From: Bacilli bacterium
GTDB lineage: Bacteria > Bacillota_I > Bacilli_A > RFN20 > CAG-826
NCBI GenBank assembly: GCA_045597865.1
Contig: JAZLKX010000025.1
Span: 274,573-338,572 of the forward strand
Length of the DNA: 64,000 bases
Direction of reading: 5' to 3'
The translations under genes and the position numbers were made by a program. Of the stretch, positions 9,905 through 60,396 are shown piece by piece. Positions within the stretch are counted from its first letter, which is position 1; each line of letters begins with the position of its first letter. Under the pieces are notes generated by a model. It was not told the DNA's origin, searched no databases, and saw only the letters and a list, made by a program, of their open reading frames with translations.

Positions 9905-9928
9905 TTTTAGTATTAAATTAGTAGTTTT
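9905..9928 (+). repeat. Phased direct-repeat motif, copy A (TTAGTAT-TAAA-TTAGTAG-TTTT)
   Basis: Half-sites at 9907-9913 and 9918-9924 (11-bp phase). Starts 19 nt after the xseB stop and ends 8 nt before the dxs ATG. Confidence 0.6.
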
Positions 9929-9935
9929 ATAGTAT

Positions 9936-11807
9936 ATGAGCAAGAAAGATATTAACAAAGTTAATCACATTGATTTAGATTCTATTAAGGATCCAAAGTT
10001 TTTAGCTACCTTAAATTACGAGGAACTTGATGTTTTAGCTTCTGACATAAGAGATGAAATACTAAAAGTTACTAGTAACTTAGGCGGCCATCTTTCAAGC
10101 AACCTCGGTGTTGTAGAACTTACTATAGCCTTACATCGAGTCTTTGATTTATCAAAGGATAAATTAATATTCGATGTTGGACATCAATGCTATACACATA
10201 AAATTTTAACAGGTCGTAAGTTAAATAACTTAAGACAAGAAAATGGAGTCTCAGGATTCCAAAAAATGGAAGAATCGCCATACGATGTTTATGAAGCAGG
10301 GCACTCATCAACAAGTATAAGTGCCGCAAATGGCTTTGCCATTGCTCGTGATTTAAATAAAGAAAAATTTAACGTAATCGCATTTATTGGCGATGGCGCA
10401 ATAAATTCTGGCCTTGCTCTAGAAGGATTGAATAACATTGGCCACTCAGATCATAAAGTAATTATTGTCTTAAATGACAATGGTATGTCAATTTCTAAAC
10501 CTGTCGGGGGACTTTCTAAGTTCTTTGCAAACATCTCGACATCCAGAAGTTATAACCGTATGAAACACGGCTATCAAAAAGTTTTTAGTAGAACTAAATT
10601 TGGCAGATGGATTCTTCATATTTCATCAAAATTCAAAAACTGGATTAAACGTGTATTAACAAGCGGAAACATTTTTACTGCTTTAGGCTTTGCCTATATT
10701 GGTCCAGTTGATGGAAACAACATTAAAAAAATTGAAAAAGCATTACTTAGAGCTAAAAACACAAAGAAATCAGTTATTATTCATGCAAATACCTTAAAAG
10801 GTAAAGGCTACAAATATTCTGAAGAAGATGAAACAGGATACTGGCATGGTGTTTCTCCATTTGATTTAGAAAGTGGACAACCAAAAAATAAACATGAAGG
10901 CATGGTTTCTTGGTCACATGTCTATTCAGACATTACAGCTTTAGAACTCGAAGAACACAAAGATGCAGTTTTAATTTCACCAGCCACAATTAAAGGTGCT
11001 GGTCTTGATTGCTTAGACAAGAAATTTGCTAACAGAATTATCGATGTCGGCATAGCCGAAGAACACGCAGCCACGCTTGCTAGCGGCTTATCTTTAGGCG
11101 GACATCATCCAATTATATCTGTGTATTCGACATTCCTACAACGTGCCTATGACGAAGTTAGCCACGATCTCGCACGTATGAAGTGTGATGCAACTTTCTT
11201 GGTTGATAGAGCTGGTTTAGTTGGTGCAGATGGCGAAACACACCAAGGCATCTATGATGAGGCTTATTTATCAAGCATTCCTGGAACAGTAATTACTATG
11301 GCTTCAAATATCGATGAAGCTAAGCTTTTATACGATGAATCATTTAAAAACCACGGTCCATTCTTTATTAGACTTCCAAGAACATTAACTTGTAAACAAG
11401 ATAGTTTCAATAAAATTGAACATTCGTTTGGCAAGTGGATGAAAGTCATGGAAACTTCAAAGAATACTGTCGTAATTTCATGCGGCCCATTATTACGTGT
11501 ACTCGAACGTGCATTAATAGACAACAACGTCGAATGCACTCTTATAAACGCACTTTACATCAAACCAATCGACAAATCGATGTTTGACGAGATTCTTGAA
11601 GCTAAGAAAATCGTCATTTATGACCCTTATTCAACCCGTGGAGGCCTTGTAGACTCTACGATGGCATATTTACTTGAGAAAAAGTTTAAGGGGTCTATTT
11701 CAGCCTATTTCGTACCTGATGAGTTTGTAAAGCAGGGAACAATAGAACAACAACTCGCTAGATATAAGATCCGCGTCGAAGACGTTATCGAAGAACTTAA
11801 AAATTAA
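9936..11807 (+). CDS. dxs: 1-deoxy-D-xylulose-5-phosphate synthase (MEP pathway)
   Basis: 623 aa with GGHLSSNLGVVELTIALH and GDGAINSG (ThDP) motifs and a transketolase-like C-terminus. Confidence 0.95.
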   Translation: MSKKDINKVNHIDLDSIKDPKFLATLNYEELDVLASDIRDEILKVTSNLGGHLSSNLGVVELTIALHRVFDLSKDKLIFDVGHQCYTHKILTGRKLNNLRQENGVSGFQKMEESPYDVYEAGHSSTSISAANGFAIARDLNKEKFNVIAFIGDGAINSGLALEGLNNIGHSDHKVIIVLNDNGMSISKPVGGLSKFFANISTSRSYNRMKHGYQKVFSRTKFGRWILHISSKFKNWIKRVLTSGNIFTALGFAYIGPVDGNNIKKIEKALLRAKNTKKSVIIHANTLKGKGYKYSEEDETGYWHGVSPFDLESGQPKNKHEGMVSWSHVYSDITALELEEHKDAVLISPATIKGAGLDCLDKKFANRIIDVGIAEEHAATLASGLSLGGHHPIISVYSTFLQRAYDEVSHDLARMKCDATFLVDRAGLVGADGETHQGIYDEAYLSSIPGTVITMASNIDEAKLLYDESFKNHGPFFIRLPRTLTCKQDSFNKIEHSFGKWMKVMETSKNTVVISCGPLLRVLERALIDNNVECTLINALYIKPIDKSMFDEILEAKKIVIYDPYSTRGGLVDSTMAYLLEKKFKGSISAYFVPDEFVKQGTIEQQLARYKIRVEDVIEELKN

Positions 11808-11894: not shown

Positions 11895-13094
11895 ATGAGC
11901 AAGATTATCCTTCACATAGATTTGAACGCCTTCTTCGTTAGATGCGAAGAGCTTTTAGATCAATCACTTGAAGGTAAGCCAGTTATCATTGGTCATAGTG
12001 GACGTGGTGGCATTGTTTCAACATGCAGCTATGCTGCGAGAAAATACGGAGTCAAATCTGGAATGCCAACTTATAAGGCATTGCAACTTTGTAAGAATGC
12101 CATCATGATCTACGGGCACTTTGATCTTTACCAAAAGAAGTCAAAAGAGTTTATTAACTTTGTTAAAAGGTATTCAAACATTATCGAACAAGCTTCAATT
12201 GATGAATGCTATGTCGACATGACAAAGGTTCTTCAAAATGAGAAGAATCCATTGAACTTTGTTAAAGAAATGCAAGCAAATCTCCTTAAGGAGTCTGGTT
12301 TAAAATGTTCAATCGGAATCGCACCAACTAAGTTTTTAGCAAAGATGGGTTCTGACATGAAAAAGCCAATGGGAATAACAGTCATTCGTCGTAAGGATGT
12401 TAGAAAAATGTTAGACCCTCTTCCAATTGAAGATTTCTTTGGAATCGGTAAGAAAACATCACCAAAACTTAGAGAAATGGGCATAAACACCATAGGTGAT
12501 TTAGCAAAACTAATTAATTCAGATGACCAAGACATCAAAAGATTCTTGGGTAAATTTTACTTTGGCATTAAAGAATGGATTAATGGCTATGGTTCAGATA
12601 CAGTTGATACTGAACCTTGGGATCCAAAGCAAATTGGACACTCAACAACTTTGCCAAGAGATGCGGAAGATGCTGACGAAATTAAGATTTATCTTAAACA
12701 AATGGCAGAAGAAGTTTCGAAGGATGCAAAAGCCGAAAATAAAGTTGGAAGTTCAGTTCAATTAATTCTAAAAGATAACGAGTTTAAAGTTATCAATAGG
12801 TCAAAACGTATTAAAGATAAAACCAATGAATTCAATGTAATTTATGAGGAAGGTCTTAAACTTTTAGCAGCCAATTATGATGGTAGACCAATTCGTTTAG
12901 TGGGAATAACTTTGCAAAATCTTGTAAATAAAGATGAAATTGTTGAACAGTTATCAATATTTGATAATTATGAAGAAGTTAAAGAAGCAAATGCTGTTAG
13001 ACTTTTAATTGCAGAACTAAATCGTCAAATCAAAGGTGCAGATTTTAAAACTGCTAGTGACTACTTAAGGGAGAAGAAAAATGGAACTCGTTGA
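11895..13094 (+). CDS. dinB: DNA polymerase IV (Y-family)
   Basis: Conserved N-terminus begins at the internal ATG 11895 (MSKIILHIDLNAFFVRCEE). SIDECYVDMT motif present. The track start at 11811 would run through the dxs terminator. Confidence 0.9.
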   Translation: MSKIILHIDLNAFFVRCEELLDQSLEGKPVIIGHSGRGGIVSTCSYAARKYGVKSGMPTYKALQLCKNAIMIYGHFDLYQKKSKEFINFVKRYSNIIEQASIDECYVDMTKVLQNEKNPLNFVKEMQANLLKESGLKCSIGIAPTKFLAKMGSDMKKPMGITVIRRKDVRKMLDPLPIEDFFGIGKKTSPKLREMGINTIGDLAKLINSDDQDIKRFLGKFYFGIKEWINGYGSDTVDTEPWDPKQIGHSTTLPRDAEDADEIKIYLKQMAEEVSKDAKAENKVGSSVQLILKDNEFKVINRSKRIKDKTNEFNVIYEEGLKLLAANYDGRPIRLVGITLQNLVNKDEIVEQLSIFDNYEEVKEANAVRLLIAELNRQIKGADFKTASDYLREKKNGTR

Positions 13095-13959
13095 TGCTGT
13101 TGATTTATATTTCCAATACCTCAGAGTAGAAAAAGGTGTTTCAAATGAAACAATCAAAAATTATTACTACGATTTGAAGTTCTTTTTCGAGACTTTAGAC
13201 AAACACACAACAGATGACTTTATGCCAACAGACATCCAAGACTTTGTAAGAATCCAGTCTAAAGAAATGCTTTCGGTTCCAACGATTCTCAGAAGAATTT
13301 CTTCAACCAAAAACTTTTATCTTTTCTTGGAAAAAGAACACATAATTGACACTCAACTAAAGAAATTTGATAAACCAAAAGGCGCTAAAAAACTTCCTGT
13401 TTGTATTTCGATTGAAGAAGTCGAAGCTTTGCTTGATGCTCCAAATATCGAAAAACCAGAGGGCTTAAGAGACCGCGCAATGCTTGAAGTTATGTACTCG
13501 TCTGGCCTTCGCGTTTCAGAACTCCTTGGTTTAAAAATAAATCAAATCAATTTTGAAAAAGGAATTATCAAAATTATTGGTAAAGGGTCAAAAGAAAGAC
13601 ACGTTCCAATCGGAGATTATGCCTTGGAATACTTAAATAAGTATATCGAAGGTCCTAGACGTAAAAATCCGGGAAGAAATACTGGATTCGCATTCCTAAA
13701 TCGATACGGAATGCCACTTAGTAGACAGTATTTCTTCTTGCAGATAAAAAAGTATGCTGAGCAAGCTGGCATTAAGGAGGAAATTTCTCCTCATACTTTG
13801 CGCCATTGCTTTGCAACACACATGCTTGAGAATGGCGCAGAACTACGTGCAGTGCAAGAAATGCTTGGCCACACAAACATTGCAACCACACAAATCTACA
13901 CGAACATCTCAAGCAAGCGCATTTTGAGCGCATATGATTTGTATAGCAAACGAAAATAG
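13081..13959 (+). CDS. xerD: Tyrosine site-specific recombinase, XerD/XerC family
   Basis: 292 aa with C-terminal HTLRHCFATHMLENGAELRAVQEMLGHTNIATTQIYT (R-H-R-Y catalytic pattern). The xerD-deoB neighbourhood resembles B. subtilis ripX-drm. Confidence 0.8.
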   Translation: MELVDAVDLYFQYLRVEKGVSNETIKNYYYDLKFFFETLDKHTTDDFMPTDIQDFVRIQSKEMLSVPTILRRISSTKNFYLFLEKEHIIDTQLKKFDKPKGAKKLPVCISIEEVEALLDAPNIEKPEGLRDRAMLEVMYSSGLRVSELLGLKINQINFEKGIIKIIGKGSKERHVPIGDYALEYLNKYIEGPRRKNPGRNTGFAFLNRYGMPLSRQYFFLQIKKYAEQAGIKEEISPHTLRHCFATHMLENGAELRAVQEMLGHTNIATTQIYTNISSKRILSAYDLYSKRK

Positions 13960-13991: not shown

Positions 13992-15188
13992 ATGAAAAAA
14001 TTTAAAAGAATATTCGTAATTGTTGCTGACTCAGTTGGTATTGGTGAAGAACCAGATGCAGCTAAGTTTGGTGATGTTGGAACAAATACATTTGTTCACA
14101 CAGCAGAAAAATGCGGTGGACTTAATGTTCCAGTCATGAACTCACTTGGCCTTGGAGATCTCGCTGACATCAAAGGAACAAGCAAAGTTAGCCACCCACA
14201 CGCTTATTGTGCAAGACTTCGCGAAGCCTCAAACGGTAAAGACACAATGACAGGTCACTGGGAAATGATGGGTATTTATACAACAAAACCATTTGTTACA
14301 TTTACAGACACTGGTTTCCCAGATGTTCTCATTAAAGAACTCGAAGAAAAAACTGGTCACAAAGTTATTGGAAACTATGCAGCAAGTGGAACTGAGATTC
14401 TTAAAGAATTAGGTGAAGAACAAATGAGAGATAATTCCCTCATTGTCTACACATCCGCAGACAGCGTACTTCAAATCGCTGCACACGAAGAAGTTACAGG
14501 TGTACAAGAATTATACAGATGCTGTGAAATCGCTCGTGAAATCTGTTTGAGACCAGAATATTACGTTGGTAGAGTTATCGCTCGTCCATACGTTGGAAAA
14601 GACAAAGACAGCTTCAAGAGAACTCCAAATAGACATGACTTAGCAGTCTCTCCAAGCGGAATTACAACTATGGACATTCTCAAAGAGAATGGTTATATGG
14701 TTTCATGCGTTGGTAAGATCGGAGACATTTTCAACCAAGTTGGTGTTGTAAAAACTCAAAAGACAGTTTCTAACATGGATGGAATGGATAAGACAATTGA
14801 AGAAGCTAAGAATCATGACTTTGAAGGTTTATGCTTTGTCAACTTAGTTGAATTCGATTCAGAATTCGGCCACAGACGTAACGCACTCGGCTATGGCAAA
14901 GCTCTTGAAGAATTCGACGTCCGTTTAGGTGAATTACTTGATGTTGTAAAAGATAATGACTTAGTCATCGTTACAGCAGACCACGGTAATGATCCAACCC
15001 ACACAGGCACAGACCACACAAGAGAAAAAGTACCATTCCTTGCTTATAGCAAATCATTCAAAAACGGTAAATACCTTGAAGAAAGAGAATGCTTTGCAGA
15101 CATTGGTGCAACAGTCTTAGAAAACTTTGGATTAAAAAAGAGTCCAAATCAAATTGGGAAACCAATTGATGAACTCTTAAACGATTAA
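13992..15188 (+). CDS. deoB: Phosphopentomutase
   Basis: 398 aa with [17 protein letters not shown] and TADHGNDPT metal-site motifs. Confidence 0.95.
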
Positions 15189-15775
15189 TCTATTAAATCA
15201 ATTTGATGAAGGGAACGTTTAATAACGTTCTCTTTTTCTAACTTAGTTAGAAGTCTTGATAATGTTTCTCTTTGAAGATGCAAAATACCTGCAAGTTCAG
15301 AGACTGATTTAAATTCAATTTTTCCATCGTGGTTAAATAAATAGAAGCGTAATCTTTCTTCAGCGGATGAATAAGATAAAAGTTTAATGGTGGAGTTAAG
15401 CTTTTTGCTGAAGTTTGATTGAGCATTCAAATAAGAAATCATAAACTCTTTATTACTTTGTAATAGTGAGATTAAATTATTACGCTTTATTACAACAATT
15501 GTTGAATCTTTTGTCGCAATAACATCGCCTTTATAGAACGGATCATCAGAGAAAATTAAGTTATTTCCAAAAACATCATTTTTGTGAAGAACATTATAAA
15601 TTAGTTCTTGGCCTTCAAATGAAGTGGTTGAGATTTTAACTTCTCCTGAAACAACAATAGAAACTGATTCACATTTTTCATCTTCTCTATAGAGAATTTC
15701 ATTTTTCTTAAGTGTTTTAACTTCTAGAAGTTTTTTCTCATCTCTAGATAAATTTAGTAAAATATTATTTTCCAT
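15185..15775 (-). CDS. Crp/Fnr-family transcriptional regulator
   Basis: 196 aa with an N-terminal cNMP-binding-like beta-roll and C-terminal [23 protein letters not shown]. Its stop overlaps the deoB stop (TTAA). Confidence 0.8.
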
Positions 15776-15783
15776 ACAAATCC

Positions 15784-15797
15784 GTGATTTAAATCAC
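15784..15797. promoter_or_regulatory. CRP-type palindrome GTGATTTAAATCAC (GTGA-N6-TCAC)
   Basis: Perfect 14-bp palindrome in the divergent gap between the crp-like gene and the ABC lipoprotein gene, 8 nt upstream of the crp-like ATG. Confidence 0.5.
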
Positions 15798-15850
15798 ATA
15801 CTTATTATCGAATATTTTATATTATATGTCCACCAGAATTGGTAAAGATT

Positions 15851-17544: not shown

Positions 17545-17568
17545 ATTTAGTAGATATTTAGTAGTTTT
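17545..17568 (+). repeat. Phased direct-repeat motif, copy B (TTAGTAG-ATAT-TTAGTAG-TTTT)
   Basis: Half-sites at 17547-17553 and 17558-17564. Starts 3 nt after the permease stop. 23-nt identity with copy C. Confidence 0.7.
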
Positions 17569-17577
17569 GATTTGTGG

Positions 17578-17607
17578 GAAACTCACGATTTTGTGGGTTT
17601 TCTTTTT
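17578..17607 (+). terminator. Rho-independent terminator of the ABC operon
   Basis: GAAACTCAC / GATTTT / GTGGGTTTTC (bulge plus one G-U pair) followed by TTTTT. Confidence 0.5.
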
Positions 17608-17635
17608 ATTTAAATTGAGAAGTTTATAGATTTTG

Positions 17636-17665
17636 AGAAAATAAAAAGTCCGAATTAATCGAACT
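17636..17665 (-). terminator. Rho-independent terminator of the yqeG-yqeH-nadD operon
   Basis: The minus-strand RNA forms AGTTCGA-TTAAT-TCGGACT (one G-U pair) followed by UUUUUAUUUU. Confidence 0.5.
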
Positions 17666-17678
17666 TTTCTATATATTT

Positions 17679-17706
17679 GGTTAACATAATAGCCATTATG
17701 CGAAGT
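17679..17706 (-). other. dif: Candidate dif site (Xer recombination site), 11+6+11 bp
   Basis: Minus strand reads ACTTCGCATAA-TGGCTA-TTATGTTAACC. Matches E. coli dif GGTGCGCATAA-TGTATA-TTATGTTAAAT at 21/28 and B. subtilis dif ACTTCCTAGAA-TATATA-TTATGTAAACT at 20/28. Lies exactly in the convergent strand-switch gap. Confidence 0.6.
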
Positions 17707-18831: not shown

Positions 18832-19980
18832 TTAATCGTTTTTGACTTTTGGTCTAGATGTATAAATTGCGACACCTTTTGGAACGTAGATACGTAATTT
18901 TTGGTTTGTTGAGTTAATTGTAACCCATCCTAAACCTGCAAATCCGATATCTCTTGGGATTGGTTTCTTATTTTGGAATGTAATATCAAAGATTTCCATA
19001 TCTTTAGTAGACTTAATTCTATTAAGAGATGGATTTAATTGACCTCTTGAGTTCAAAGAGATGAATTTCTTCTCTACATCAGTGATGTGAGACTTACGTA
19101 ATTGTACATTATCGTGGAAATAGCATGTAAATGTGGCTCTATCGCCTTCTAATACTTCGATGATGCCTAATCCACCAATGAATAAAGATTGATGCTCAGA
19201 AATGGACATTTCACGAGCTTCAACTGGTTTAGTAAGATAAATTGATTTCAAAGTCTTTGCGTCAAGACCAAATAAAATTGAGTTGGTAATTGAAATACCT
19301 GGAGTTTCATACATTGATGAACGATTGTTTAAAGGAATTTCCATTACTTTAAGATTTGTATTTTTATATTCATGAGTCATGATATTTCCGTTTGAAAGAT
19401 TTGAATAAATCTTTAAGAATGCGGAAATAAGAGCAGTTTTACCTGAATCGGATTGACCAATAATGAAGACATCTTTGCCATTCTTTAATTCGAAAATACG
19501 AGTTAAAGTTTCTTGGATTGAATCATCATCTTGTTTAGTTGTGATCATTACGTCTTCAGCTTTAATCTTTAAGCCTGCGACTCTAAATCTATGTGCAACG
19601 TATTCGGAAGTGTCATAAAGACTTGTTCCTTCTGGAAGAAGGTCAAACTTAGTACCAACAACTAAAATATTAGCATCACTTATAAGTTCAGTAAGTTCTT
19701 TGGAGAATGAGGTTTCGAATGAGAACAAGTTTACTACGTAAACAATTAAACAACCTTTTTCTTTAGCTTGTTTAATTACTTCGATGAATTCTTCATCGAT
19801 GTATGGTTCATTAGAAACTGATGAAAAACGTTCTGCTTCAAAACATCTATTGCAGAACAAAAAGTTCTGAGTAGGATTTTCTAAAACTTCTTTGTTAACG
19901 TAGCCTTCTTTAGAAGGATCATCACATTGAAGTGTTGCACCACAGCTGTAGCACTTTCTAATTTTCTTAATTTGTTCCAT
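18832..19980 (-). CDS. yqeH: Ribosome biogenesis GTPase YqeH (circularly permuted)
   Basis: 382 aa with N-terminal Zn-ribbon CYSCG...CNRCF and permuted G motifs (VGTKFDLL before GQSDSGKT). Confidence 0.9.
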   Translation of the reverse strand: MEQIKKIRKCYSCGATLQCDDPSKEGYVNKEVLENPTQNFLFCNRCFEAERFSSVSNEPYIDEEFIEVIKQAKEKGCLIVYVVNLFSFETSFSKELTELISDANILVVGTKFDLLPEGTSLYDTSEYVAHRFRVAGLKIKAEDVMITTKQDDDSIQETLTRIFELKNGKDVFIIGQSDSGKTALISAFLKIYSNLSNGNIMTHEYKNTNLKVMEIPLNNRSSMYETPGISITNSILFGLDAKTLKSIYLTKPVEAREMSISEHQSLFIGGLGIIEVLEGDRATFTCYFHDNVQLRKSHITDVEKKFISLNSRGQLNPSLNRIKSTKDMEIFDITFQNKKPIPRDIGFAGLGWVTINSTNQKLRIYVPKGVAIYTSRPKVKND

Positions 19981-20500
19981 TGATTTCTCTCCAATCTTTA
20001 AGCAAATGCTTTTTATTTAGTTTTCTTCTTAACGGATTATCGAATAAACGATTGAATCTTGTTGTTGGCTGATCTTCTTCCACTAATTTCTCAGTCAACA
20101 CACTTCTAATTCCTGCTCCATTAGCACAGCTAATGTCAGTGACAATTTGATCACCAATTAAGATAACCTCATGTCTGTAGATTTTTAATCCTTTAAGCTT
20201 TCTAAGTAATTTCTTAGAAAAAGGTTTTGCAAGCTTTGACATAAATCTAACGCCAAGAGCTCTAGCATATTTTGTGACCCTTTTTCCGGTGTTGTTTGAT
20301 GTGATAATTAACTCGATTCCTTCCATTAATAAATCCTCTTTGAGATCTATTACTCTTTTTGAAGGTGTTGCAGTCTTGTAAGAATCAAGCGTATTATCAA
20401 GGTCAACCAAGATGAATTTTACGCCTAAATTTTTATAAAACGAAACATCGATTTCAAAAATCGATTGAGCATGTGCGAAAGGAATCAAGCGTTTCCACAT
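19967..20500 (-). CDS. yqeG: YqeG-family HAD phosphatase
   Basis: VDLDNTL (DxDxT) and GDQIVTD motifs. ATG at 20498-20500 preferred over the track's TTG at 20506. Confidence 0.8.
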   Translation of the reverse strand: MWKRLIPFAHAQSIFEIDVSFYKNLGVKFILVDLDNTLDSYKTATPSKRVIDLKEDLLMEGIELIITSNNTGKRVTKYARALGVRFMSKLAKPFSKKLLRKLKGLKIYRHEVILIGDQIVTDISCANGAGIRSVLTEKLVEEDQPTTRFNRLFDNPLRRKLNKKHLLKDWREINGTN

Positions 20501-20507
20501 AGTCAAA

Positions 20508-26050: not shown

Positions 26051-26074
26051 TTTTAGTAGATATTTAGTAGTTTT
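26051..26074 (+). repeat. Phased direct-repeat motif, copy C (TTAGTAG-ATAT-TTAGTAG-TTTT)
   Basis: Half-sites at 26053-26059 and 26064-26070. Starts 13 nt after the plsY stop. Identical 23-mer TTTAGTAGATATTTAGTAGTTTT as copy B. Confidence 0.7.
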
Positions 26075-26095
26075 TTAAACTGTGAATTAATAAAA

Positions 26096-26144
26096 GACTC
26101 CATTGTGGAAACACCAAAAAGTTTCGATGAAATGGAGTTTTTTA
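26096..26144 (+). terminator. Probable plsY terminator (long-loop hairpin)
   Basis: GACTCCATT ... AATGGAGTT with a 26-nt loop containing an internal GAAAC/GTTTC pairing, followed by TTTTT. Confidence 0.45.
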
Positions 26145-26233
26145 ATTGACGATTTTTTAATTTACACTTCTCCACTACTACTGCAACCCACTTCAATTTA
26201 TGCGCTATTAAAAAACAGGCGATTTTAGGCACG

Positions 26234-26257
26234 AAAAAAGCACCTCCGGAGAGATGC
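26234..26257 (-). terminator. Rho-independent terminator after yneF
   Basis: Minus-strand GCATCTC-TCCG-GAGGTGC followed by UUUUUU. Confidence 0.7.
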
Positions 26258-26279
26258 TTCATCAATAGTAATTTCGGGC

Positions 26280-31368: not shown

Positions 31369-32232
31369 ATGAGAGTTACTGTTTTAGAACCTTCAGGTTA
31401 CTGTGCAGGCGTTGATCTTGCTATAAACTTAGCAATCAAAACAAAAGAAGAAAACAAGTCAAAAAACGTTGTTGTTTTAGGTATGCTTGTCCATAACCAA
31501 GACTCCTTAAAAACTCTCGAAAAACACGGAATAAAGACCATTTATAAAGAAAATTCGTCTTTAGACGAACTGATTGATGAAATTAAAGAACCTTCAATAG
31601 TCATTTTGACTGCTCATGGTCACTCTAAAAGTATTGAAAATAAACTTCTAAAAAACGGCCACCAAATCGTAGATACAACCTGCCCATTTGTTAAAAAATC
31701 AATGGAAGAAATTTCTAATGAATTAGCTAACAACAACTCTGTTTTCTATATTGGTGTTAAAAACCATCCTGAAGCAAACGCGGCACTTTCATTAGGGGAA
31801 AAAGTTTATTTAATCGACTTTAAAAGTCCGATTATTCCTTTAGTAAATTCCGATTCACCTTTGGTGATTTGTCAAACAACACTCTCAGAATCTGAAATTA
31901 GCGGAGCAATTTCTCTCATAAAAAATAAATACAAAAATGCTAAATTTATTAAAGGAATTTGCAATGCCTCAACCCTTAGACAAACTGCTATCTTATCATT
32001 AGATAACACTGTTGATATGATTTATGTTGTTGGTGGAGCTAATTCAAACAACTCAAAAACATTATTTAATTTAGCAAAGTCCCACTACCCAAATATCAAA
32101 GTTCAATTAATTCAAAATGTTGATGATATAAAAGAAAAAGACCTTATAGGTCTTTCTCATATAGCAATTTCTTCAGGAGCATCAACTCCAAAGGAAATTA
32201 TTGAACAAATCAAAAATAAATTACTTAATTAA
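31369..32232 (+). CDS. ispH: 4-hydroxy-3-methylbut-2-enyl diphosphate reductase (IspH/LytB)
   Basis: 287 aa with three conserved Cys contexts (GYCAGV, TCPFV, CNAS) and TAHGHS. Confidence 0.9.
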   Translation: MRVTVLEPSGYCAGVDLAINLAIKTKEENKSKNVVVLGMLVHNQDSLKTLEKHGIKTIYKENSSLDELIDEIKEPSIVILTAHGHSKSIENKLLKNGHQIVDTTCPFVKKSMEEISNELANNNSVFYIGVKNHPEANAALSLGEKVYLIDFKSPIIPLVNSDSPLVICQTTLSESEISGAISLIKNKYKNAKFIKGICNASTLRQTAILSLDNTVDMIYVVGGANSNNSKTLFNLAKSHYPNIKVQLIQNVDDIKEKDLIGLSHIAISSGASTPKEIIEQIKNKLLN

Positions 32233-52420: not shown

Positions 52421-53848
52421 TTACTCTTTATCGATTGGTGTGTAAACAAACTTGTTTTTGATTTGCTCGCGTCTATAGTATCCACGATAAGCGAGATTAT
52501 CCATGGATGTACGAGCTGTTTCATAAACACAACCTTCAAATCTCTTATATTCTTGGATTGTGTAGAATTTACCTTTTGTGCAATGTCTCACATAAAAGTG
52601 AGCTTGTCCTTTTTTGATATATGGATCAGACTCTAAAATATCAATTTCACGAGCTTTAAGTTCTTTTTCTGATAAATCAGAAGTCGGTCTATTATCAATT
52701 GGTTTTTGTGGAGCAGCATGCACAGCAGGCGCAACAACAGGTGCTGGTGCTGGTCTTGTTGCTACTTCAGGTGTTGGTATAGGTTGTGGGCGCGCTTCTT
52801 CGAAAATGTCTTTTGCTGGTTCGATTCCAAACTCTTCTTTAAACTTCTTTGCATCATCGCCCATCGTAATTGTAGCTTCCAATGCTTTAGCATTTACTTG
52901 AACGATCCTATCTATAATTGCATCAAAAGCTGCATTAATTGAATCGTTTCCTTTAAGAAGAGCGTAAGTAAAGTCATGAGATTTTAAAACTTCTCTTGAA
53001 ATTTCTCCAAATAAATCTTTATCGTTTAGAATTAACTCTAATGGAACATAAACTGAAGCAAGAGACAATCCAGATGAAGAAAGAATAGCTTTTGCGGCGA
53101 TAAGAGAAATTTCTAAATTAAAATCTTCAAATGGTTTAATATAATTAAACATAAAGATTGTCGCCACTAATCGTGTGAGTAATGAATGATTTCTGTCATT
53201 TGCAAATGCAATGACTGAATTCATCATATCTTCGATAAGATGTGCTGGAACACCATTGTTAAATTCTGCTCCAACAAGGAATCTTGAAGATGGAGAATTT
53301 GAATCATTTACTCTGTAAAAAGATGTTAATTCTTCTTGACCTTTTAAGATAGCATAGTAATTCGCTAAAAATTCTTCTCCAAATTGTTCATATGATGCTT
53401 TTGATAATCTTTCAAGAGCATTAAAGTAATTGATAATTACTTGATATCTTTCATCATTACATTGATGTTCGATAATGTTTTGAAGTGTAATTTCTGAAAC
53501 ATCAATGTTATTAAATTTAGCAACGCACTTAAGTGCGGTTTTTAACATATCGTGAGTTAAAGTATATTTGGCAATAGAACCATTCATGAGCTTATCAAAC
53601 AAAGCATCGCACTTACTGACGCGTCCAATAATCTCACCCATAATGTTAATCACCTTTGGTGTTTGTGTTAAATTAAAATGAAAATGAGCATTGTCAAAGA
53701 TTGGAAGTTCAACTGCCATTCCTCTTCTATAGACAATTATTTCTCTCCAAATTTGATCAATAAGGTTTGTGCCAAGAGATTTTGCGACTTCCATACGAGT
53801 CATATATTTCTCATTGGTGAATTTTACATTTAATTCTGATCCTGCCAT
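52421..53848 (-). CDS. Fic/DOC-fold protein with a degenerate active-site motif, Pro/Ala-rich linker and C-terminal wHTH-like domain
   Basis: 475 aa. VPAHLIEDMMNSVIAF...IKPFEDFNLEISLIAAKAIL aligns to the Fic core HPFxDGNGRxxR but reads KPFEDFNLE. C-terminus FYTIQEYKRFEGCVYETARTSMDNL resembles the Fic-associated wHTH. Confidence 0.5.
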   Translation of the reverse strand: MAGSELNVKFTNEKYMTRMEVAKSLGTNLIDQIWREIIVYRRGMAVELPIFDNAHFHFNLTQTPKVINIMGEIIGRVSKCDALFDKLMNGSIAKYTLTHDMLKTALKCVAKFNNIDVSEITLQNIIEHQCNDERYQVIINYFNALERLSKASYEQFGEEFLANYYAILKGQEELTSFYRVNDSNSPSSRFLVGAEFNNGVPAHLIEDMMNSVIAFANDRNHSLLTRLVATIFMFNYIKPFEDFNLEISLIAAKAILSSSGLSLASVYVPLELILNDKDLFGEISREVLKSHDFTYALLKGNDSINAAFDAIIDRIVQVNAKALEATITMGDDAKKFKEEFGIEPAKDIFEEARPQPIPTPEVATRPAPAPVVAPAVHAAPQKPIDNRPTSDLSEKELKAREIDILESDPYIKKGQAHFYVRHCTKGKFYTIQEYKRFEGCVYETARTSMDNLAYRGYYRREQIKNKFVYTPIDKE

Positions 53849-53900
53849 AGCTTTTACCTCGTTGAGAACATTTTATACTATTTAGAAACTTATGTAAATA

Positions 53901-53924
53901 AAAACTACTAATTTTTAACTAAAA
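53901..53924 (-). repeat. Phased direct-repeat motif, copy D (minus strand: TTAGTTA-AAAA-TTAGTAG-TTTT)
   Basis: Half-sites at 53916-53922 and 53905-53911 (11-bp phase). Starts 7 nt after the lepA TGA stop on the minus strand. Confidence 0.6.
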
Positions 53925-58120: not shown

Positions 58121-59056
58121 TTATTTGAAAATTATTCCATTTAGATGTTTGGAACCGTTTGCGAAGCTTCTTCCATCCATCTTTTTCTTACCTGCTAATT
58201 GAACTTCTAAAAGCTCAACCACAGCATCTTTTAATTTAAGATAAACGCTCTTATTTATTAGTAATGAACCAACTGGCCCATCAACTTTTTGATCAACAAC
58301 TTTTGCTTTGAGAATTTTGAATTTTAATTCATTAAGCATTAAGTATCCGCCAGGCTCTTCTGACATGCCTCTAACATAATTAACAAATGTTTTTGCGTCG
58401 TAATCTAAGCTAAGTTTTTCAGTCTCTGGAAGAATCTTATCTGCAAATGTGACTTTGCTTTCATCTTGTTCTTCTCCAAGAAGCTTACCTTCTAGATAAA
58501 CTGGAAGGAACTTTTTGGTGACTTCAATAGCGCATTTTACAATCTTTTCACAAAGTGATGTGTAATTATCTTCTGGAGCAATTTCACATGAAACGACGCC
58601 ATACATTTTGCCTGCATCCATCTTATCAACCATTTCCATAAGCGTAACGCCTGTGCATGTTTCGCCATTCATGATTGCGCGTTGAATTGGTGCTGCGCCT
58701 CTGTATTTTGGAAGAATGGATCCATGAAGATTTAATGCGCCCATTTCTGGGATATCAAGTAAGCCTTGTGGAACAATTTGGCCATAGGCCATTGTGAGAA
58801 TTAAGTCTGGTTTTAATTCCTTCAAAAATTCATAATCTAATCTGATTTTATGAGGTTGATAAACCGGGATATTATGTTGCTTTGCAACAACTTTGGTTGG
58901 AACCTCAGTTAAAATAGCTTTTCTTCCAACAGGTCTATCCTCTTGTGCAATAACTGCGACAATGTTAAAACCTTCTTGAATTAATGCTTCAAGAACTTGG
59001 GCAGACATTTCTGGTGTACCCATATAAACAATTCTAGTCTCACTTATGCTTTTCAT
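58121..59056 (-). CDS. fmt: Methionyl-tRNA formyltransferase
   Basis: 311 aa with IVYMGTPE, NLHGSILPKYRGAAPIQ and the SLLP-type motif. Confidence 0.9.
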   Translation of the reverse strand: MKSISETRIVYMGTPEMSAQVLEALIQEGFNIVAVIAQEDRPVGRKAILTEVPTKVVAKQHNIPVYQPHKIRLDYEFLKELKPDLILTMAYGQIVPQGLLDIPEMGALNLHGSILPKYRGAAPIQRAIMNGETCTGVTLMEMVDKMDAGKMYGVVSCEIAPEDNYTSLCEKIVKCAIEVTKKFLPVYLEGKLLGEEQDESKVTFADKILPETEKLSLDYDAKTFVNYVRGMSEEPGGYLMLNELKFKILKAKVVDQKVDGPVGSLLINKSVYLKLKDAVVELLEVQLAGKKKMDGRSFANGSKHLNGIIFK

Positions 59057-59445: not shown

Positions 59446-60396
59446 CTAGTTTGGAAAATTTATTAGAAATAATTCTAAACCATAAGAGCGGTCAATTTGA
59501 CCGCTTTTAATTTGCGCATCTAAATTATATAAATCATCCAATGCGTGGGCGATTTGTCTCCTAGATAAAAATCTAGAATTCTTTAAAGCCATGTAAACAC
59601 GGCCCTCACTAACATTTAATTCTTTAGCAATTTGTCCTTTATCAAGTCCGCGCACATCTAAGTAGCAAACTTGGGCAATAAATCTAAATTGGGTTGCAAG
59701 CATAGGAATTAAAGCATCTGTCGCTTTGGCGCCAAGTAATTTTAAATCTCTATAAATAGAAATGGCTAATGCATTATCTCCTTTAAACAAGGCATTAGAC
59801 ATTTGAAAAGCATCATCTTCTAGAGGTTTTGCAACCATAAGCAAAACATCAGAAAGTGTAATTTTGTCTTTATATAAACAAAGTTTATCAGCTTCATTAA
59901 CAAATCTTGTTAAGTCGCCATCAACTCTTGCGACTAATTCATTCACCGCATCTGAATCAATTTCAACTTCTCTATTTTTGAAATACTTTTTCGCATAAAC
60001 TGGCCATTGTTCTTTTGTAAGATCCAAAAATTCAAAAACACCATGAATTGAATCAATATATTTGGCGATTCCACCATTTTTATCTAATTTGTCTGAACGT
60101 AAAATGAAAATACAGTTAATTTCATCTGGATTGTTTTTTATGCAGTCTAGAAGCTTTTCTTTTTCTTCGTCTTTTCCTTCTTTTGTTAAAAAGGTTGCGT
60201 TATCAACAACAACAGCTTTTCTATCATAACCTAAAGGCATCATTGATGCTTCAGAAACAATTTCATCTATAGATGATTCTGCATAATCAATCTTTATTGT
60301 ATTAAAATCATCTGGTTCCTTAACGCACTCTTTTAAAACTTTCGCAAGGTGTTTGCGGATCATGTGATATTGAGAGCCATACAATATGTAATTCAT
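59446..60396 (-). CDS. holA: DNA polymerase III delta subunit
   Basis: 316 aa with delta-subunit pattern. The comEC-holA-rpsT neighbourhood matches Bacillus. Confidence 0.85.
   Translation of the reverse strand: MNYILYGSQYHMIRKHLAKVLKECVKEPDDFNTIKIDYAESSIDEIVSEASMMPLGYDRKAVVVDNATFLTKEGKDEEKEKLLDCIKNNPDEINCIFILRSDKLDKNGGIAKYIDSIHGVFEFLDLTKEQWPVYAKKYFKNREVEIDSDAVNELVARVDGDLTRFVNEADKLCLYKDKITLSDVLLMVAKPLEDDAFQMSNALFKGDNALAISIYRDLKLLGAKATDALIPMLATQFRFIAQVCYLDVRGLDKGQIAKELNVSEGRVYMALKNSRFLSRRQIAHALDDLYNLDAQIKSGQIDRSYGLELFLINFPN
59487..59510 (+). terminator. rpsT terminator embedded in the 3' coding region of convergent holA
   Basis: AGCGGTCA-ATT-TGACCGCT followed by TTTTAATTT. On the other strand it encodes KSGQIDRS of HolA. 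Confidence 0.6.

Follow-up and report, generated by a model that had tools for sequence, protein, structure and literature searches.

The window, by which the whole 64-kb stretch analysed here is meant, spans a replication terminus. The dif site, which the initial annotation had proposed as a candidate, is a clear site of XerCD type and coincides with a switch of GC skew and gene orientation at ~18 kb. Its arms are assigned to XerC and XerD by comparison with E. coli dif. Four copies (A to D) of a direct-repeat motif are arranged around this site in the order A(+) B(+) dif C(+) D(-), and Pfam assigns the genes flanking them as xseB, dxs, an ABC permease gene, plsY and lepA. The features are as follows.

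9907..9935, + strand: copy A, which takes up the xseB-dxs junction with three units in phase (TTAGTAT-TAAA-TTAGTAG-TTTT-ATAGTAT).
13081..13959, + strand: gene of an Xer-type tyrosine recombinase (PF00589, PF02899), 3.7 kb from dif, synteny conserved.
17547..17568, + strand: copy B, two-unit array, distal arm of the dif region, starting 134 bp before the dif core.
17573..17581, + strand: DnaA-box-like 9-mer TGTGGGAAA, one mismatch to TGTGNAWAA, at -108 from dif.
17576..17610, + strand: intrinsic terminator of the ABC permease gene, called by the terminator scan at 17576-17603, following copy B.
17643..17669, - strand: terminator hairpin with A and T runs on either side, at -38..-12, a conserved position just before dif.
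17679..17706, - strand: dif, with XerC arm ACTTCGCATAA, spacer TGGCTA and XerD arm TTATGTTAACC; the XerD arm faces copy B.
26053..26074, + strand: copy C, array of two units, 13 nt downstream of the stop codon of plsY.
26081..26150, + strand: conserved blocks that accompany copy C, namely TGTGAATTA at +6 counted from the end of the array and a long hairpin at 26097-26138.
52421..53848, - strand: pseudo-Fic protein gene, C-terminal winged helix near-invariant, candidate for the array binder.
53870..53898, - strand: promoter-like site of the pseudo-Fic gene (TTTACA-17 nt-TAAAAT), read from the sequence.
53901..53922, - strand: copy D, array of two units; the stop codon of lepA precedes it by 7 nt, and the promoter -35 follows at a distance of 2 bp.

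The identical 23-mer TTTAGTAGATATTTAGTAGTTTT was read at 17546-17568 and 26052-26074 and the degenerate repeat copies at 9907-9928 (+) and 53901-53922 (-), which confirms the four copies and the shared 23-mer given in the initial annotation. The repeat unit is 11 bp long and consists of YTAGTAG plus four A/T bases (WTWW). Arrays are built from neighbouring, degenerate units, of which the listed loci hold two to five, and in the position matrix of these loci the spacer left free in the search pattern is almost purely A/T. The 'T4 tail' described earlier is present simply as the A/T spacer that closes the final unit. The motif lacks palindromic symmetry, its units being direct repeats with a period of 11 bp. 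Thus, the arrays show at least two direct repeats, each with a core plus A/T-rich spacer, and their period agrees with the 10-11 bp of OmpR/PhoB boxes. The 7+4 bp unit, present at least twice, supports the previous suggestion of a same-face direct-repeat site of the tandem-winged-helix type. Judged by its layout, the motif is very likely a DNA iteron array bound by a protein, i.e., a candidate binding site.

For TTAGTAGWTWWTTAGTAGTTTT with ≤ 3 mismatches, four sites were found in the 64-kb window compared to 0.02 expected, and 0/100 shuffles of the window reached four matches. The copies are, therefore, not explained by chance, the objection that the initial annotation had itself raised. A looser two-heptamer pattern gave five matches (0.56 expected), the fifth of which is the third phased unit of copy A. 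The nearest co-oriented upstream stop codon lies at 19 nt (xseB), 3 nt (ABC permease), 13 nt (plsY) and 7 nt (lepA), respectively. These distances give no frame rule; the motif is independent of the reading frame, as had been noted, and a role as backup stop codons in three frames was rejected on the same ground. Motifs that orient a translocase (KOPS/SRS) are short, skewed and abundant genome-wide, also within genes. This candidate was rejected, since the motif has only four copies per 64 kb, all of them intergenic. Concerning the terminator hairpins reported after copies B and C, the former was called, whereas the latter was seen by eye and received no call in the scan. The Rfam gathering scan of the window returned no family.

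To cover other genomes, one genome per GTDB species was scanned with TTAGTAGNNNNTTAGTAGTTTT, which gave at least 118 loci. The listed loci are mostly from MAGs of uncultured gut 'Bacilli', 'Mollicutes' and 'Erysipelotrichaceae' of horse, ruminants and chicken; among the matches listed, the motif occurs widely in MAGs of uncultured gut Bacilli that are relatives of Ca. Fiminaster. The window itself has ~95% identity to the MAG Horse_feces354 and 86% to Ca. Fiminaster equi. Hence, the motif is real and conserved in a lineage of uncultured gut Bacilli. Arrays recur at orthologous loci (copies A, C and D) and beside dif across species, which is the conservation in relatives that the initial annotation had proposed to look for. 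Searching the literature in full text for the motif gave nothing but unrelated primers. Tandem repeats that contain TTAGTAG but differ in period, similar to GTTAGTAGTTTTAAAG, were seen in six Bacteroidales MAGs; they look like a separate repeat family with a common heptamer.

Among the matches listed, 118/123 perfect copies are intergenic. Such a location is to be expected of phased units, which introduce stop codons into every reading frame of both strands. Non-dif arrays adjoin the stop codon of a co-oriented ORF in 38 cases and that of an anti-oriented ORF in 10 cases among the matches listed. As many of the 38 are orthologous sites (plsY 17 times and xseB 6 times among the matches listed), the stop-codon bias is real but modest, and part of the tendency arises because units with stop codons are excluded from genes. 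The proximity to stop codons emphasized in the initial annotation is true in the window, but as a defining property it is not borne out lineage-wide. Among the matches listed, arrays also recur ahead of ftsA (4-6 MAGs), in the interval from glyS to dnaG, ahead of yqeG and in front of a divergently oriented radical-SAM activase gene. Convergent gaps are enriched for arrays about fourfold (48/111 among the matches listed). Apart from the pseudo-Fic gene, no recurrent DNA-binding gene was found beside the arrays among the matches listed.

Another regularity concerns the distance to dif, which was searched using the pattern TTCGCATAA-N6-TTATGTTAA with ≤ 3 mismatches. In 31 loci among the matches listed, the opposite strand has a dif 122-147 bp downstream of where the array starts, with a mode of 134 bp. 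Side classes occur at ~123 and ~145 bp, each one 11-bp unit away from 134, and three further loci have a variant dif at ~123 bp from the array. In total, at least 34 species have an array at 134 bp (or 123/145 bp) from an XerCD-type dif, and the XerD arm faces the array in every dif-linked case among the matches listed. When XerD-arm 9-mers were counted in the 838 kb of the listed loci, 34 of the 91 were located at +117..+178 from an array, all in one orientation. No enrichment of XerD half-sites (XDS-like) was seen beside those arrays in the listed loci that are not linked to dif. A tie to the terminus and dif had been suggested before; it is supported and tighter than guessed, the 134-bp spacing being kept in dozens of species.

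The dif region including the array is ~165 bp long and conserved, with copy B as its distal end. Among the matches listed, the sequence from array to dif cannot be aligned between genera, and its length is kept. The 9-mer TGTGNAWAA is exact in 17/32 dif modules and has one mismatch in 8/32 among the matches listed, compared to 0/216 exact matches in control windows. Its position is fixed with respect to dif, either at -97 ± 1 or at about -108. A T run at about -80 is conserved in the dif modules and so is the hairpin with flanking A and T runs at -38..-12. In the window, this hairpin, called as a terminator on the minus strand, ends the convergent nadD/yqeK transcript after it has crossed dif, and the stem of the ABC permease terminator shows a compensatory change in Ca. 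Fiminaster equi. Reading the 9-mer as an extended -10, or as a site for the CRP/FNR regulator encoded nearby, was rejected on grounds of geometry, and a second inverted box beyond dif (KOPS-like) was rejected since its orientation is inconsistent.

Because the genome scan had picked loci by the motif, three dif loci were also fetched via NadD/YqeK homologues of 59-74% identity. All three have an array, at -134 or -122, and two of the three have the box at -97. One of these arrays falls outside the original search pattern. A metagenome scan with the dif pattern returned 18 unrelated contigs and none from the lineage.

Several side observations concern the surroundings of dif. The site is part of the 3' end of the convergent nadD/yqeK transcript, where it is bracketed by the stop codon of that gene and its terminator. 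The gene that ends directly upstream of the dif-linked array encodes, in seven MAGs, a protein of ~187 AA, which may be MazF/PemK-like by the look of its sequence. A gene for a CRP/FNR-family regulator (15185-15775, - strand) is located 2 kb from dif and is syntenic in related contigs. A near-perfect TGTGA-N6-TCAC palindrome (TGTGATTTAAATCACG, ~15783-15798) just upstream of its start is probably an autoregulatory site. Dif-like sites of other, unrelated organisms, some of ~60% G+C, were seen on seven metagenome contigs, with between one and three TTATCCACA-type boxes no more than ~60 bp away and, in some cases, another dif-like site in inverted orientation; they may be plasmid or phage origin-plus-resolution modules. 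In a rumen metagenome contig, CTAGTAA/TTAGTAG-type units in both orientations occur ~100 bp before a dif-like site, and a second dif-like site with a long spacer adjoins the first.

Arrays are enriched near the terminus, yet they are not confined to it. The following figures were obtained with perfect matches only and are lower bounds. Among the matches listed, ten contigs have perfect copies that occupy adjacent 8-kb blocks. The 648-kb contig CAMJPB010000001.1 has five perfect copies among the matches listed; three of them share a 24-kb stretch around dif (order: xseB-dxs, dif, plsY), and two arrays are 270-310 kb away from dif. Among the matches listed, the only perfect copies on a 182-kb contig homologous to the window are the two of the window. 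As arrays exist far from dif, the element is not exclusive to the terminus, and gene regulation could be its primary role. The matS site of MatP is a 13-bp palindrome confined to the terminus domain. A site of this type was rejected, since the motif is non-palindromic and its copies are enriched near the terminus yet not confined to it.

Copies A and C occupy conserved positions as well. The third unit of copy A (ATAGTAT) abuts the dxs ATG at 9936, and orthologous arrays between xseB and dxs or dinB were found in six MAGs. For copy C, 16 other MAGs among the matches listed have an orthologous array after plsY. Counted from the array start, its partners are TTCGAT at +70 and TTGAC at +93, and the TTGAC offset of 92/93 is kept in 13/17 plsY array loci. 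In the window (26146-26260) and in five other loci, one to three direct ATTGACA(C) repeats with a spacing of 11-15 bp lie at the conserved +93 and a CCACTACTAC-like stretch comes next. No promoter -10 was seen after the ATTGACA(C) repeats downstream of the plsY array at those loci.

A leaderless-start or promoter model, with TAGTTT or TAGTAT of the array as -10, was rejected because the array-to-ATG distances vary from 0 to ≥ 24 nt. As a separate observation, TATAAT-like hexamers exactly 7 nt before an ATG lacking a Shine-Dalgarno sequence were read at four genes of the window (58121-59056, 59446-60396, 31369-32232 and 19967-20506), which suggests that leaderless mRNAs are common in the source organism.

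Copy D is placed at a promoter-like site. Six orthologous loci were fetched by protein homology and in 6/6 the array lies 2-3 bp from the -35, down to a protein identity of 40%. The promoters read TTTACA or TTGAAA, a spacing of 16-17 nt and TAAAAT or TATAAT. The transcription-factor site considered in the initial annotation fits this copy. The downstream gene encodes a protein family of 457-485 AA with a Fic fold (best PDB matches SoFic and Coxiella Fic2), whose catalytic motif is degenerate across the family (KPFE..N.E), and in which a disordered linker is followed by a near-invariant C-terminal winged helix. The genes of Tus and RTP carry a Ter site in their own promoter (PMC10331603), and by analogy the pseudo-Fic protein is a candidate for the array binder; the link is positional and should be read as a lead. 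In the window (53891-53899, - strand) and in three of the orthologous loci, the -35 region after copy D reads TTTACATAA, i.e., the reverse complement of the XerD-arm 9-mer TTATGTAAA. The sequence is absent in two others and the identity may be coincidence.

The best mechanism for copy B, although unproven and somewhat short of probable, is that of an accessory or architectural arm for XerCD-dif recombination or terminus handling. A lineage-specific protein would read at least two units head-to-tail on one helix face. The array at -134 would form the outer arm of an extended dif, followed by the DnaA-box-like 9-mer at about -97 or -108, the hairpin at -38..-12 and the XerD arm. The array-bound protein and a box-binding protein might then shape the ~110 bp of DNA beside XerD and serve as accessory or architectural factors for XerCD-dif or the terminus, in the way of ArcA or ArgR-PepA at psi and cer. 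The array protein would be used elsewhere, too: copy D may be an operator abutting the -35 of the pseudo-Fic winged-helix gene, which in turn may encode the array binder itself and be autoregulated, and copies A and C would be additional conserved sites near the terminus. A more specific version, in which the dead-Fic winged-helix protein is autoregulated from array D, binds the dif-flanking iterons together with DnaA or another box-binding protein and so controls XerCD or the terminus, we consider improbable. Several observations count against an accessory role. The arrays are on the XerD side, whereas the accessory sequences of cer and psi are on the XerC side, and ordinary terminators occupy part of the conserved spacing. 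Also, we know of no chromosomal dif site that needs accessory DNA.

The chief rival to an accessory role at dif is a mainly regulatory one, which is possible, though clearly less probable. Here, the arrays would chiefly be operators of a global transcription factor, either an OmpR/PhoB-type regulator or the pseudo-Fic winged-helix protein, with pseudo-Fic, ftsA, dnaG, dinB, yqeG, an nrdG-like gene and dxs as targets and the dif copy as an extra regulatory or co-opted site. The 7+4 bp units at a period of 11 bp have the classic Pho-box layout, and the invariable placement of copy D next to a -35, together with the recurrence of arrays near ftsA, glyS/dnaG, yqeG and the divergent radical-SAM activase gene, is what operators would show. 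However, most arrays are located between a stop codon and a terminator, often in convergent gaps without a promoter. The next start codon is 0 to > 200 nt away, so that the promoter geometry is not fixed, and regulation offers no rationale for a dif spacing conserved to the single base pair.

Polar protein-DNA barriers to RNA polymerase, replication forks or a translocase, which would shield dif or gene ends, are a less likely explanation still. The enrichment in convergent gaps agrees with barriers, as do the co-orientation of 4/4 window copies with the upstream gene, the direction of 3/4 toward dif and an oppositely oriented array 2.6-3.4 kb beyond dif in six MAGs. The array in the promoter of the pseudo-Fic gene also resembles the Ter sites of the Tus and RTP genes (PMC10331603). 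However, the arrays and dif of contig CALVRY010000001.1 follow one another as A'(+, -6.0 kb), B(+, -134 bp), dif, X(-, +2.67 kb) and C(+, +8.5 kb). X and C are directed away from each other, so that strictly polar barriers, whichever their polarity, would put part of the DNA beyond the reach of any fork and leave it unreplicated. Copy C of the window is directed away from dif as well. Copy A lies inside the xseAB-dxs operon, where a block to transcription would silence dxs, and the orientation bias of non-dif arrays is modest once orthologous sites are allowed for. The architecture, too, differs from Ter, consisting of direct repeats with an 11-bp period and no overlapping inverted sites. The fork-terminus site of RTP/Ter kind to which the initial annotation had loosely compared the motif is, hence, contradicted both by architecture and by these orientations; a Ter-like trap is unlikely, although weak pausing may occur. 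None of the 38 window proteins scanned had a Pfam match to the RTP or Tus family.

Very improbable is an RNA-level element of the 3'-UTR or intercistronic region (UAG-rich and C-free), acting through an RNA-binding protein or an effect on ribosomes after termination: although many copies lie 0-25 nt after a co-oriented stop codon and ahead of the terminator, and are therefore transcribed, and although the genes with a start right behind an array lack a Shine-Dalgarno sequence, the reading frame is unrelated to the stop codon, the motif has no predicted structure and action at the RNA level cannot explain why the distance to a DNA recombination site is kept constant. In at least seven species, moreover, the dif-linked array is found upstream of a divergent gene start, namely that of a conserved membrane-protein gene 0-56 nt from the array, so that no co-oriented gene lies upstream, and orientation and distance to dif are unchanged. 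The dif-linked class is, thus, a DNA element, and for it the 3'-UTR RNA element listed as an option in the initial annotation is largely refuted.

Chromosomal dif is treated as a self-contained 28-bp site under the control of FtsK, and to our knowledge accessory DNA is known only for plasmid Xer sites. In the literature searched, we came across neither the motif nor a chromosomal dif that has an accessory arm at fixed distance; the array-dif arrangement appears undescribed for any chromosome. If true, a conserved accessory arm of ~135 bp at fixed spacing beside chromosomal dif in many species would be new. Comprising iterons and a DnaA-box-like site in uncultured Bacilli with small genomes, it would point to a different control of dimer resolution or the terminus and perhaps to a link between dif control and DnaA. 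The dead-Fic reading, if true, would place a third protein-DNA system that organises the terminus alongside Tus/RTP and MatP, and no chromosomal dif before it would have had obligatory accessory DNA. The 165-bp module, the nearby Xer gene and the candidate binder are available as reagents, and the motif can be used to locate dif and the terminus in MAGs of the lineage.

Among known systems, RTP-Ter, Tus-Ter, matS/MatP and XerD-binding XDS are short protein-binding sites, as the arrays are predicted to be, and like the arrays they are concentrated around the terminus or dif. A fork trap consists of two groups of polar sites with opposed orientation, past which forks can move into the terminus but not out of it; the Ter site of RTP has 30 bp with overlapping A/B dimer sites and that of Tus has 23 bp with a GTTGTAAC core. 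The reverse complement CTACTAA resembles the ACTAA cores of Ter. In contrast to Ter and matS, the arrays are direct 11-bp repeats, neither overlapping inverted A/B sites nor a palindrome, and in contrast to XDS, non-dif arrays have no adjoining XerD half-site.

Origin modules are similar in other respects. Iteron and DnaA-box modules of theta plasmids and Vibrio chromosome 2 have the same short direct repeats beside a 9-mer fitting TTWTNCACA, the reverse complement of the word found here. Both forms are under-represented in the window (4 matches compared to 12.6 expected), which is consistent with a functional word. The DnaA-trio module of origins resembles the element by TAG triplets 5' of TGTGGATAA on the same strand; it is defined by at least three contiguous NAN trinucleotides beside the box at oriC (PMC8287927). 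The element examined here differs from origin modules in its location at the terminus instead of oriC, the single box, the absence of a Rep gene and TAG triplets which are spaced with a period of 11 bp and are not contiguous 3-nt repeats. A tblastn search with an approximate B. subtilis DnaA query found no dnaA in the listed loci.

OmpR/PhoB boxes (Pho box, WalR, CiaR, ArcA) have the same direct repeats of ~7 bp + 4 A/T with an 11-bp period in at least two units, and their placement at the -35 is matched by copy D in all six loci. Copies B, C and most arrays differ, lying off promoters, and the candidate binder may be no response regulator. The half-site TTAGTAG matches no box of the OmpR/PhoB family known to us, and the window contained no candidate for a cognate response regulator of this type.

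Closest in layout are the Xer sites of plasmids. At psi, the direct-repeat-binding winged-helix regulator ArcA has its site ~100 bp from the core. The dif region described here likewise has 100-180 bp of flanking DNA at fixed spacing to an XerC/XerD core, and as with ArcA and ArgR, whose sites are also found elsewhere in the genome, arrays lie at other loci as well. At psi and cer, ArcA or ArgR plus PepA organise ~180 bp next to the Xer core (PMC5357621). The present element differs in being chromosomal, in its motif and in its side, the array lying beyond the XerD arm TTATGTTAACC whereas psi and cer are plasmid-borne with their accessory DNA on the XerC side. PepA, ArgR and ArcA are not known to be involved in it, and a topological filter would be hypothetical here; at sites of the cer/psi type, recombination requires the accessory proteins, which make it selective for resolution. 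A new terminus system would be an unlikely classification; in relation to what is known, the element is best regarded as a variant of Xer accessory DNA and of direct-repeat operators.
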